64,000 nucleotides of DNA from Candidatus Eiseniibacteriota bacterium (GTDB lineage Bacteria; Eisenbacteria; RBG-16-71-46), in the NCBI GenBank assembly GCA_031370785.1, contig JANMQY010000079.1, positions 40,675 to 104,674 of the forward strand, in the 5' to 3' direction. Numbering within the stretch: the first letter of the stretch is position 1; each line of letters begins with the position of its first letter. Shown here piece by piece: positions 51,001 to 54,000 of the stretch. Made by a program: the position numbers.

Positions 51001-54000
51001 CTGGCCGCGAAACCCATCCGCCGCTCGGACATCGTGCTCGGCAAGTGGGCCGCGCACGTGCTGCTGGTCGCCGGCTACCTGCTGCTCATGGCGGGCGGCG
51101 TGCTGGTGGTGGCGCGCGCGCTCAGCGGCGTGACGCCGCCAGGGATCGCGATCGGCCTGCCGCTGATGATGCTCGAAGGCGCGCTGCTGGTGACTCTTTC
51201 GATCGCGGGCGGCACGCGATTCAGCACGGTCACCAACGGGGTCGCGGTGTTCGGGCTCTACGGGCTCGCGTTCATCGGAAGCTGGGTCGAGCAGATCGGC
51301 ACGCTCTCGGGGAACCAGGCGGCGCGCAACGTCGGCACGGTCGCGAGCCTGATCATGCCGAGCGAGGCGCTATGGCAGCTCGCCGCACACCACATGCAGC
51401 CGGCGATCATGCGCGACCTGCACCTGACACCATTCTCACCAGCCTCGGTGCCGAGCGCGGCGATGGTGGCGTGGGCCGCCGGCTACCTCGTGCTCGTCCT
51501 GCTGGTCGCGCTCGGCCAGTTCAGGAAGCGCGCGCTCTAGCGCGGGGAACTCGCTCTGGAGCGAGTTGCACACCGGCGCACCTCAACTGGCTCTGAAGCC
51601 AGTTGCACCTACTGAACGTCGGGCGGGGTCACGTCCCAGCCTTCGGGGGGCGGGGCCTCGTTGCTCGATGCCTTCGGCTTCTTGCCGCAGTTGCAGTCGC
51701 CGCACTGGTGGTAGGGCCCCGGCGGCAGATCGGCGTAGGCGATTCGATGCTCGGCGCCGTCGCTGTCGCGGATCCACACCGCCTCCTGATAGGTCTCGGT
51801 GCGAATCACCGTGCACACGCCCTGTCCGGTCTTGAGCTGGGCGCCCGCGGGCGGAAGCTTTTCGGCGCTGTCGCGGTACTGCGCGAGCTCGTAGGCGAGG
51901 CAGCACATGAGCCGTCCGCACACTCCCGAGATCTTGCTCGGGTTGAGCGAGAGCTGCTGCTCGCGCGCCATGCGCAGCGTCACCGGATGGAAGTCCTTGA
52001 GCCAGGTCGAGCAGCAGAATGCGCGCCCGCACGGGCCGCACCCGTCCAGGCGCTTGGCCTGATCGCGCACCCCGATCTGACGCAGCTCGATCCGGGTCTG
52101 GAACTTCGCCGCCAGGTCCTTGACCAGGTCGCGGAAATCCACGCGGTGCTCGGCGGAGAAGTAGAACGTGATGCGGTGCCCGCTGAACGCGACCTCGACC
52201 TCGGAAAGGTCCATCGTCAGCTCGCGGGTCTCGATGCGCTTGCGGCACCAGTCGAAAGCCTCGCGCTCGCGCAGGCGGTTGTGGTCGATCTGGTCCAGGT
52301 CTTCCTCGGTGGCCTTGCGGATGATTTCGCGGGCCACGTTGCCGGGGCGCTTGAGCTGCACCAGCATCTGGTCCTTGAGGAAGACCAGGCCGTCGCTCTC
52401 GCCGTTCTCGGCCTGCACGATCACGGGATCGCGCAGCTTGAGCCAGAGATTCCGGGAATTGAGGAAGCATTCCTTCTTCGAGCCGCGCAGGGCCACCTGC
52501 ACGATATCCGACATCCGAAACCTCTATGGGCGACTGGGAGTCGCCTGAAACGCCGGCTCGAGAATCCGACGGGTCGGTTTTCCAGCGGATCCGGCAGTTC
52601 GCGAATGCAGCGCCGGGCCGCCTTCGAGCGGTGAATCCGGACGCGGTGCCGCGCGTGCTGCCGGCTATCGAAAGATCCCGGTTGCCAGGGACCAGAAATT
52701 GGAACGCCGCCAGCATAGCGCACCGCAGGCCGCCTTGCAGCAATCCGGCGTGCGCGCCGCCTAGCCGGACGGCGCCGGTCCCGAGCCGTCGAGGACCTGG
52801 CGCAGCGTCTGAAGGAGCGCCTTGCCGCCGTACGGTTTCGGCAGGAACGCCGCGGCCCCGCCGGTCAGCGCCTCCGGGCTGTCCAGCGATTCGGCGGAGA
52901 ACCCGCTCGACAGGATCACGCGCAGTCCCGGGGCGATCTCGCGCAGGACGGCCTGCACTTCGAGCCCCGAGCGCCCCGGCATGCTGAGATCGAGCAGCAC
53001 GACCTGGATGTCGGCCGCGTGCGCGCGGACGGTCTCGATCGCCTCGTCTCCGGTGCGGGCGACCATCACCCGATAGCCGGAACCCGAAAGCGTTTTTGCG
53101 GCCAGCTGGCGCACCACCTGCTCGTCGTCCACCACCAGCACGGTCTCGGTGCCGCCCTGCGGGCGATCCGCCTTTCGCCGCGCCGGCAGCACGCGCTCGA
53201 CCGAGCGCGGCAGCATCACGCGGAAGGTGGCCCCCTTCCCGACCGCGCTCTCGACCTCGATCCAGCCGCGATGGTTGGAGACGATGCCGTAGGCCATCGA
53301 GAGGCCGAGCCCGGTGCCGACGCCGACCGACTTGGTGGTGAAGAACGGCTCGAAGATGCGCGGGATCACCTCCGGCGCCATGCCGCAGCCGGTATCGGCC
53401 ACGCCGATCTCCACGAATTCTCCGGAGCGGGCCTCGGGATGGGTGCGCGGCGATTGCTCGTCAATCGCCAGGTTACGCGTCCAGATCGTGAGCGTGCCGC
53501 CGTCGGGCATTGCGTCGCGCGCGTTCACGCACAGGTTCATCAGCACCTGCTGGATCTGTCCCGGGTCTGCCATCGCGCTCCACGCGTCGTTCTCGAGCTC
53601 GACCTTGAGTCGCACCCGAGAGGGCAGCGTCCGGTGCAGCAGCGCGGCGGTCTCTGCGACCGTGTCGTTGAGCAGCGTGGGCTCGGGATGGCTCGCCAGC
53701 CGGCGGCTGAATGCGAGCAGTCCGCGGGTGAGATCGGCGCAGCGTTCGGCGGCGCGCAGCGCGAGGCGCACGTGCTCCTGGCGCGGGTCGGCGCCGTCCA
53801 GCTCGTGGGCGAGCAGGTCCAGGTGGCCCATCACCCCGGTGAGCTGATTGTTGAAGTCGTGCGCCACCCCGCCCGCCAGCGTGCCCACCGTCTCCATCTT
53901 CTGCGCGTGCGCGAGCTGCCGCTCGAGATCGCGATGATCGGTGATGTCCGCCATCGATCCGACCATGGCGATGGCCTCGCCCTCGGGCGCGTAGCTGAAG

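Follow-up and report, generated by a model that had tools for sequence, protein, structure and literature searches.

The window analysed here is a stretch of 64,000 nucleotides on contig JANMQY010000079.1 of a Candidatus Eiseniibacteriota genome (assembly GCA_031370785.1; 3.44 Mb, 68% GC), referred to below as G000. It carries a copy of a gene for an HNH protein and two stand-alone clusters of short palindromes (Table 1). One cluster fills the 68-bp gap between the ABC-2 permease and PSP1-domain genes. Its two palindromes have one and two unpaired central positions and lie 37 nt apart, not the 36 nt given for such clusters in a preliminary description of this DNA. The 20-mer of the first is found unchanged in the linkers of HNH gene copies on contigs C62 and C98. 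The 17-nt spacer resembles the spacers of clusters on C98 and C9 (local scores 11 and 9), and matches the linkers of G000 no better than shuffled sequences do. The 16-nt spacer of the second cluster is identical to that of a cluster on C102. Pattern matches number three in the window, at 51548, 51585 and, in the linker of the HNH gene, 42340, against 0.02 expected. Among the 21 relatives checked, the first cluster was not found at the flank of the PSP1 gene, and reads over 37000-55500 (4 of 14 runs) gave no empty allele of it among the joints listed.

Table 1. Features of the window, in positions of the 64,000-nt stretch.
Feature	Position	Strand	Remarks
Second stand-alone cluster	26656..26701	.	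near-perfect palindrome, 16-nt spacer and half-site
Conserved 5' region of the element	41600..41837	+	TTGAC about 230 nt before the start; extended -10-like box near the start
HNH gene copy	41838..43168	+	ParB-like HTH, linker, RHH-like, HNH, coil, RuvA-C-like
In-frame linker palindrome	42340..42359	.	AACTGGCCGTGCGGCCAGTT; reads LAVRPV
Second in-frame linker palindrome	42412..42431	.	CACTCGTTCCGGAACGAGTT; reads LVPERV; 72 nt after the first
Left neighbour, ABC-2 permease gene	50692..51540	+	convergent on the cluster; outside the system
Stand-alone palindrome 1	51548..51567	.	AACTCGCTCTGGAGCGAGTT; commonest variant
17-nt spacer	51568..51584	.	between palindromes 1 and 2
Stand-alone palindrome 2	51585..51604	.	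AACTGGCTCTGAAGCCAGTT; 8-bp arms
Right neighbour, PSP1-domain gene	51609..52514	-	convergent on the cluster

The palindrome family in the genome

The repeats form a family of 20 bp, AAC-N14-GTT, with covarying arms. They had been described as perfect palindromes of the form AACT[CG]G-N8-C[CG]AGTT. That a family exists is upheld by 19 exact matches genome-wide against one for the reversed control, but only 3 of the 19 pair over all ten positions and the family is wider, AAC-NN-G-N8-C-NN-GTT. Seventeen of the 19 are near-perfect, 5 within gene copies and 12 intergenic; the other two are chance matches. A rule that demands pairing finds 15 intergenic matches where 0.9 are expected from the coding rate. 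A looser scan yields 13 stand-alone intergenic sites, where the earlier estimate was about ten, and most of these lie 100-360 nt 5' of a start codon, beside promoter-like boxes. From their translations we take the adjoining genes to be ffh, pyrG, rplM, rpmB/recG, msrA and an atp gene. Spacers are common to the stand-alone clusters, two pairs being identical, and 6 of 12 match the linkers of G000 better than about 95% of shuffles.

Units dispersed in this way could belong to an independent REP family, spread by a host Y1 (RAYT-like) transposase and collecting in a tolerant HNH linker. The genome does contain one Y1_Tnp gene (L238, G000:C108:8750-9091), which has no flanking repeats. The gene directly upstream of it looks by eye like lexA, and we assume it to be lexA-like. 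REPs are described as sitting in frame in proteins (PMC3733652). However, neither this palindrome nor any repeat family surrounds the Y1_Tnp gene, and the flanks of the units vary freely, with no GTAG or CGTC tetranucleotide beside the stem. Nor are other genes of G000 enriched, with 7 weak coding matches in 3.04 Mb. In other clades, moreover, palindromes mark the ends of the HNH element itself, by which the Y1 reading is largely refuted; we consider it highly improbable.

The HNH gene and its protein

Two lesions, a 21-nt deletion near 42702 and a frameshift near 42772, interrupt the copy in the window. The copy on contig C62 is intact and encodes 440 aa; the genome gives 11 matches to this protein. 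The gene copies of G000 are about 75-80% identical, begin at TTGAC some 230 nt before the ATG and finish at the stop codon; no inverted repeats are evident at their ends. Four 3' halves share an identical stretch, so either some of the spread is recent or the assembly has collapsed copies. In one contig from a relative, position 41568 runs on into 43525 (side 34 nt), so that the element is missing, together with the AT-richer DNA at 43170-43510 between its stop codon and the rsmA/ksgA gene. The TTGAC and -10-like box of the 5' region are shared by copies in all clades seen. The length of this region of about 230 nt and its two motifs are kept across phyla, while its middle diverges. Rfam gave no match to the 5' region and none in the 17 loci scanned.

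In a structure model of the protein (pLDDT 79.5) linker residues 147-200 are disordered. For residues 24-138 the likeness is to the domains by which ParB, KorB and Spo0J bind DNA (Z 6.1-6.7; 91-99 residues at rmsd 2.9-3.9), and for residues 213-271 to the ribbon-helix-helix region of MatP (Z 5.2). These are followed in the model by the HNH domain, a long helix and a domain like RuvA domain III (Z 6.4, rmsd 1.7 over 45 residues). When the N-terminal piece was folded alone, ParB, KorB, Spo0J, SopB and Noc ranked first, weakly (Z 5.1-5.5), and helical arrangements of common kinds reach fold Z scores such as these (5.1-6.7). In four fold searches the top place goes to DNA-binding domains of the ParB family, Foldseek giving Spo0J, SopB and Noc at E 0.45. 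Pfam matched HNH families only, with no match to ParB, and there is no room for an N-terminal CTPase domain, as the HTH-like region starts at residue 24-28. The closest PDB sequence match is an HNH nickase (E 0.81). A profile match to IscB is weak and runs through the HNH domain only (24 bits against a cut-off of 175), and neither the structure model nor the profiles contain a RuvC domain.

The RuvA-like tail was modelled with the host RuvB at a score of 0.72, the best control scoring 0.00; the runs agree in 98% of contacts and the partner pLDDT is at least 86. The pass mark is reached by 116 of 157 solved pairs and 2 of 215 mismatched ones, and the likeness of the tail to solved RuvA-RuvB may itself explain the pass.

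The linker as an array of DNA sites

With selection on AAC-N14-GTT alone, a linker match is present in 59 of 94 Eisenbacteria copies, and 35 have no strict match. The linkers account for 95 matches in 33.8 kb and the rest of the gene, 77.8 kb, for 9, so that the density is about 24-fold higher in the linker. The earlier statement that palindromes lie in frame inside the linker holds for the copy in the window and elsewhere, 82 of the 95 matches being in one reading frame. Units stand in exact 36-nt steps from position +445 in the linkers of two relatives, G046 and G083, and are shuffled between copies. Of 48 in-gene intervals, 26 measure 36 nt, and a single one is not a multiple of three. Up to five variants occur in a single linker. 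Palindrome units are also found in frame in the second low-complexity stretch, which follows the HNH domain in the C-terminal coil (P0075, P0106, L220). The canonical parS-like motif gave one loose match, unrelated to the palindrome family.

Over 47 distinct sequences the two arms pair far more often than shuffled expectation at positions 4, 5, 7, 8 and 9 (42 of 47 against 21 at position 4, 40 against 13.5 at position 5, 34 against 20 at position 8). The palindromes might be RNA hairpins, acting as terminators or mRNA stabilisers of neighbouring host genes; the genes on either side of the window cluster converge on it, and either of its strands folds at about -30 kcal/mol. There is no U tract, however, and most relatives lack the palindromes at orthologous positions. 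Promoters lie downstream of most sites, and Rfam gave no match in the 17 loci scanned. An RNA stem is also disfavoured by the mismatches, A-C outnumbering G-T by 14 to 5, and by central tetranucleotides (loops) that occur in both orientations. The chance that the palindromes are RNA signals of this kind is very slight.

Palindrome and gene in other lineages

The proteins of a distant clade (B), which have no RuvA-like tail, often end in TRSGPS, NSVRTE or LGPDRV, the translations of one palindrome in its three frames. The clade B set consists of the best 80 of 548 metagenome loci, less duplicates and loci without an anchor. Within these best 80, 17 of 52 have a palindrome upstream, in many cases 20-70 nt ahead of the TTGAC motif, and 29 of 67 have one downstream. 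Complete loci of the same set have one at either end in 27 of 42 cases, at both ends in 10 and at neither in 15, and the far flanks gave a single match in 77 kb. Palindromes flanking the gene are rare in the window's own clade. The same rare variant stands at both ends of one element in L337 and L389. In Elusimicrobiota and related bins the palindrome is located just before the start codon or in another frame. A site that may lie in the linker, at the ends or before the start, in any frame, is a DNA feature kept in cis. The proposal that the dispersed palindromes were seeded by the linker agrees with the units and spacers that clusters share with it, but does not account for sites at element ends and before start codons in all three frames.

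One exact 20-mer, searched over 596 Gb, occurs at 41 loci. Sixteen are inside the gene, 13 stand alone in Eisenbacteria and 9 in Elusimicrobiota, and 3 are probably due to chance. All 7 genomes tested that have the stand-alone 20-mer also have the HNH gene. Stand-alone copies repeat the variant of the resident gene in G000, G084, G053, G052, G236 and G328. In G053 there are two protein subfamilies, each with its own palindrome variant, at different places. The linker of G328, from the phylum of an Acidobacteriaceae bin, contains a 30-bp extended palindrome that recurs at 6 sites with no gene within 1.5 kb. Against the 13 stand-alone sites of G000, there are 6 in G084, 8 in G160 and 6 in G328; clusters advance in steps of 40 nt in G084 and 33-34 nt in G052. 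In G160, whose bin may be incomplete, 8 copies stand alone and the single gene copy has none, and in G161 and G162, again possibly incomplete bins, stand-alone variants differ from those at the genes.

Terminal palindromes in clade B, shared variants and shared linker spacers thus bear out the link first drawn between palindromes and gene, and that the two form one system is close to certain.

Some loci show further features. In G053, the palindromes at L111:1228-1275 and L322:1103-1155 are flanked on each side by a further 14-bp inverted repeat common to both. The palindrome of L236 lies within a terminator-like stem. L345 and L383 have the same left flank and 5' region and differ in gene ends and right flanks, and are either mosaic copies or an assembly chimera.

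Distribution

The HNH family comprises 7,850 clusters at 50% identity (E below 1e-30) and is spread over several phyla. The gene was found in 101 of 151 genomes of the phylum. The Atlas lists the family in Myxococcota and Bdellovibrionota too, and a survey of Acidobacteriota found full-length copies in at least 2 of 301 genomes, an undercount as 5 candidates were scored per genome. No relative was present on the viral contigs and plasmids searched.

At least one exact palindrome match occurs in 120 of the 151 genomes, many by chance, and the earlier count of 17 in 41 genomes, with 1 for the reversed control, was not reproduced as stated. Three exact matches are found even in G087, which has no gene, and 3-5 in G024, G057, G027 and G105. 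Only high counts are informative across the phylum: eight or more copies, counted by eye and with in-gene palindromes included, are reached by 21 of the 101 gene-bearing genomes and by none of the 50 others. The proposition that the palindrome tracks the gene across the phylum proves largely circular, because most matches lie inside the gene. All near-perfect matches of G046 (9 of 9) and G083 (13 of 13) are within gene copies. These well-assembled relatives, with many gene copies and no stand-alone palindromes, count against the reading preferred below.

Some counts include genomes flagged as unpublished. G015 is one of the 21 high-count genomes; G268 provides 5 of the 41 loci of the 20-mer, 1 of the 94 copies and 4 of 122 rows in the helix-base comparison below; and G318 is one weak row of the Acidobacteriota survey. 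None of the claims depends on them.

Gain and insertion sites

Clusters are present 5' of pyrG in 3 of 30 genomes of three genera, with differing variants, 5' of ffh in 2 of 31, again with different variants, and 5' of rplM in 1 of 29. Those upstream of pyrG and ffh were gained independently. Empty-site alignments confirm gains for C9, G160 and G328, the relatives being too divergent for the junctions to be read. Whole elements occupy the region 5' of ffh in G154 and G158, and that of rplM in G005. Unrelated insertions accumulate in the ffh, pyrG and rplM regions too, and so the pattern of sites may be due to survival bias. The region 5' of ffh (L132-L161) is a general hot spot of insertion in the family, where different genomes have palindrome clusters, the HNH element, an IS end or genes for small regulators. 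Direct repeats of at least 8 nt flank 3 of 54 stand-alone sites, all in G000 and 9-11 nt long (null 1%), and target duplication as a rule was rejected on that count.

Immediately 5' of the TTGAC motif, at least 7 HNH copies in several genera (L030, L032, L038, L081, L175, L217, L482) adjoin a conserved IS-like end, whose first letters are TGTAACCCATGTCCCCGG. We take it to be IS481-like. It may mark a targeting preference, or be a borrowed end that moves the gene.

These arrangements can also be understood if the protein represses its own toxic nuclease through the palindromes as operators, and the gene has been moved by other means, for example a transposase in trans. The stand-alone units would then be remnants of element loss by terminal recombination, or of passive gene conversion. 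In Elusimicrobiota copies there are palindromes 20-45 nt ahead of the start codon, where operators would be placed, and the IS-like end suits a transposase in trans. Matching terminal palindromes at both ends also form direct repeats, and whole elements and clusters occupy the same intergenic regions, as expected of scars. However, the stand-alone clusters of G000 and G328 share their flanks with linkers, not with element ends, and arrays grow in regular steps of 33-40 nt. The gene copies of G000, moreover, have no terminal palindromes despite its 13 stand-alone sites. We regard operators and scars as an unlikely account, though one to be kept in mind; if it is true, the system falls back among selfish HNH genes, as a variant.

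Recognition of the palindrome

A scorable site was available for 122 of 182 copies in a comparison of the predicted recognition helix with the half-site. Residue 70 is the top column of all for base 7. Lys or Arg goes with C in 62 of 69 copies, Gly with G in 21 of 21 and Asn with T in 9 of 12. The same residue ranks second within each large clade taken alone; within clade B, Asn accompanies T in 8 of 11 copies, against 1 of 28. Positions 66 and 73, on the same face of the helix, rank high too. On a tree built without the helix there are 1-3 well-supported independent pairs, mostly in the right direction (p about 0.5), so that the tracking of base 7 by residue 70 is suggestive and not phylogenetically significant. 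ParB and Noc switch specificity by four residues of the ParB-type DNA-binding region (PMC7383237). It is probable that the HNH protein binds the palindromes.

The symmetric covariation of the arms fits hairpin recognition or template switching equally as well as sequence binding. The protein might see an extruded hairpin or cruciform, with RuvB extruding it and the HNH domain resolving the four-way junction; sequence would be relevant only at the AAC/GTT base of the stem. Covariation at the variable positions 4, 5 and 8, the many variants together in one linker and the modelling of the tail onto RuvB would all suit a reader of structure. On the other side, the distance between AAC and GTT is fixed at 14 nt across phyla, a helix residue tracks a stem base, and clade B does without the tail. 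ParB-type domains bind duplex dyads (PMC7383237). Structure reading appears distinctly unlikely, and the symmetric variation that remains may come from template switching or from hairpin recognition.

A model for the system

The reading we prefer, at a probability of roughly 0.5, is that the palindromes are cognate DNA sites, comparable to parS, of a selfish ParB-like/HNH protein whose gene has no known transposase and which spreads them by host repair. The protein would dimerise through its ribbon-helix-helix domain, and its two ParB-type helix-turn-helix domains would bind the 20-bp dyad as ParB binds parS. The HNH domain would nick or cut DNA nearby, and in the Eisenbacteria clade the RuvA-like tail would recruit the host RuvB motor. 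Host recombination repair at the breaks would copy palindromes, with about 16 nt of adjoining sequence, to new places and, less often, the whole gene. Copies would survive where they are harmless, at element ends, in frame in the disordered linker (in 36-nt steps) and in intergenic DNA upstream of promoters.

The analysis shows the repeats and where they lie, their covariation, gains specific to lineages and, by structure model, the order of the domains; binding, cutting, the use of RuvB and mobilisation are inferred, and we put the spreading of palindromes by the protein at even odds. HNH nucleases are not known to carry out strand transfer, which counts against mobilisation. The up to five variants in one linker also count against this model, since a strict sequence reader would not need them.

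Were the model true, families of palindromic repeats in bacteria would have a second origin, one with an unrelated chemistry. It would supply a mechanism for the multi-copy 'HNH endonucleases', a family of very large size whose members are annotated as hypothetical or McrA-like. The hypervariable linker would be explained by DNA arrays and not by protein evolution, and the tail might mimic RuvA in recruiting RuvB. Even for RAYT, the way in which REP-type repeats spread is an open question (PMC8266576). The present system offers an independent case, with one small protein, defined sites and natural variant pairs, in which binding, cutting and mobility are open to direct test.

Comparison with known systems

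The listings and abstract openings of the literature searched contained no description of a palindrome-HNH system. The mycobacterial REP13E12/DUF222-HNH elements consist of a multi-copy gene for a helical domain and HNH, with no known transposase, and the present gene is likewise multi-copy with an HNH domain (11 matches in G000). Pfam DUF222 (PF02720), in contrast, is essentially unmatched: a single protein among 35 gave a match, at E 0.32, and of two Eisenbacteria proteins none did, remote homology being possible. The literature listings contained no account of cognate palindromes for those elements. Integron attC sites have AAC...GTT cores with L and R boxes and measure at least about 57 nt. 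Only 14 nt separate AAC from GTT here, and a likeness of the G084 flanks to attC was dropped on size.

Classical IS elements and MITEs differ in that the G000 copies have no evident terminal inverted repeats and no fixed target duplication. IS200/IS605 elements with TnpB or IscB (OMEGA) resemble the system in hairpin-like ends around a nuclease gene. The present system, however, has no RuvC, no Rfam RNA in 17 loci, identical symmetric ends and a protein-based recognition domain. Free-standing HNH homing endonucleases and zinc-ribbon HNH nickases likewise combine HNH with an accessory DNA-binding domain, and spread through host repair is plausible here as well (PMC3592412). Unlike them, this element carries its putative site within itself and at its ends and inserts at unrelated loci, not on the viral contigs or plasmids searched.

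Compared with ParB-parS, Noc-NBS, KorB and SopB-sopC, the HNH protein is without an N-terminal CTPase domain and is fused to HNH, and its 20-bp sites are unevenly distributed among relatives and belong with a selfish gene. The tandem dyad arrays recall sopC. The predicted N-terminal fold, the predicted dimer on a short dyad and specificity from a few helix residues would be points in common (PMC7383237).

The preliminary description saw in the system an HNH counterpart of REP/RAYT, which is apt for its organisation, clade B being REPtron-like with palindromes at both ends, but not for its chemistry, there being no HUH/tyrosine enzyme. As in REP/BIME-RAYT, palindromes of 20 bp are scattered between genes, either alone or in groups joined by short linkers; their variants are specific to lineages, some units lie in frame in proteins, and cognate palindromes flank a nuclease gene (PMC8266576, PMC3733652). 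The HNH system has neither the HUH/Y1 tyrosine enzyme nor the GTAG tag. Its units are symmetric where REP units are oriented, its gene is multi-copy and apparently mobile where RAYT is mostly single copy, and it has arrays inside the gene and copy numbers in the tens, not hundreds (PMC8266576, PMC3733652).

The system fails a defining feature of every known family tested. With slightly less than an even chance, it may represent an undescribed class of mobile element present over several phyla, in which a ParB-like dimer joined to HNH, centromere-like palindromes as ends, a borrowed RuvB, the seeding of REP-like repeats and of in-frame arrays in the element's own gene, and a simple code between helix residue and base are combined.
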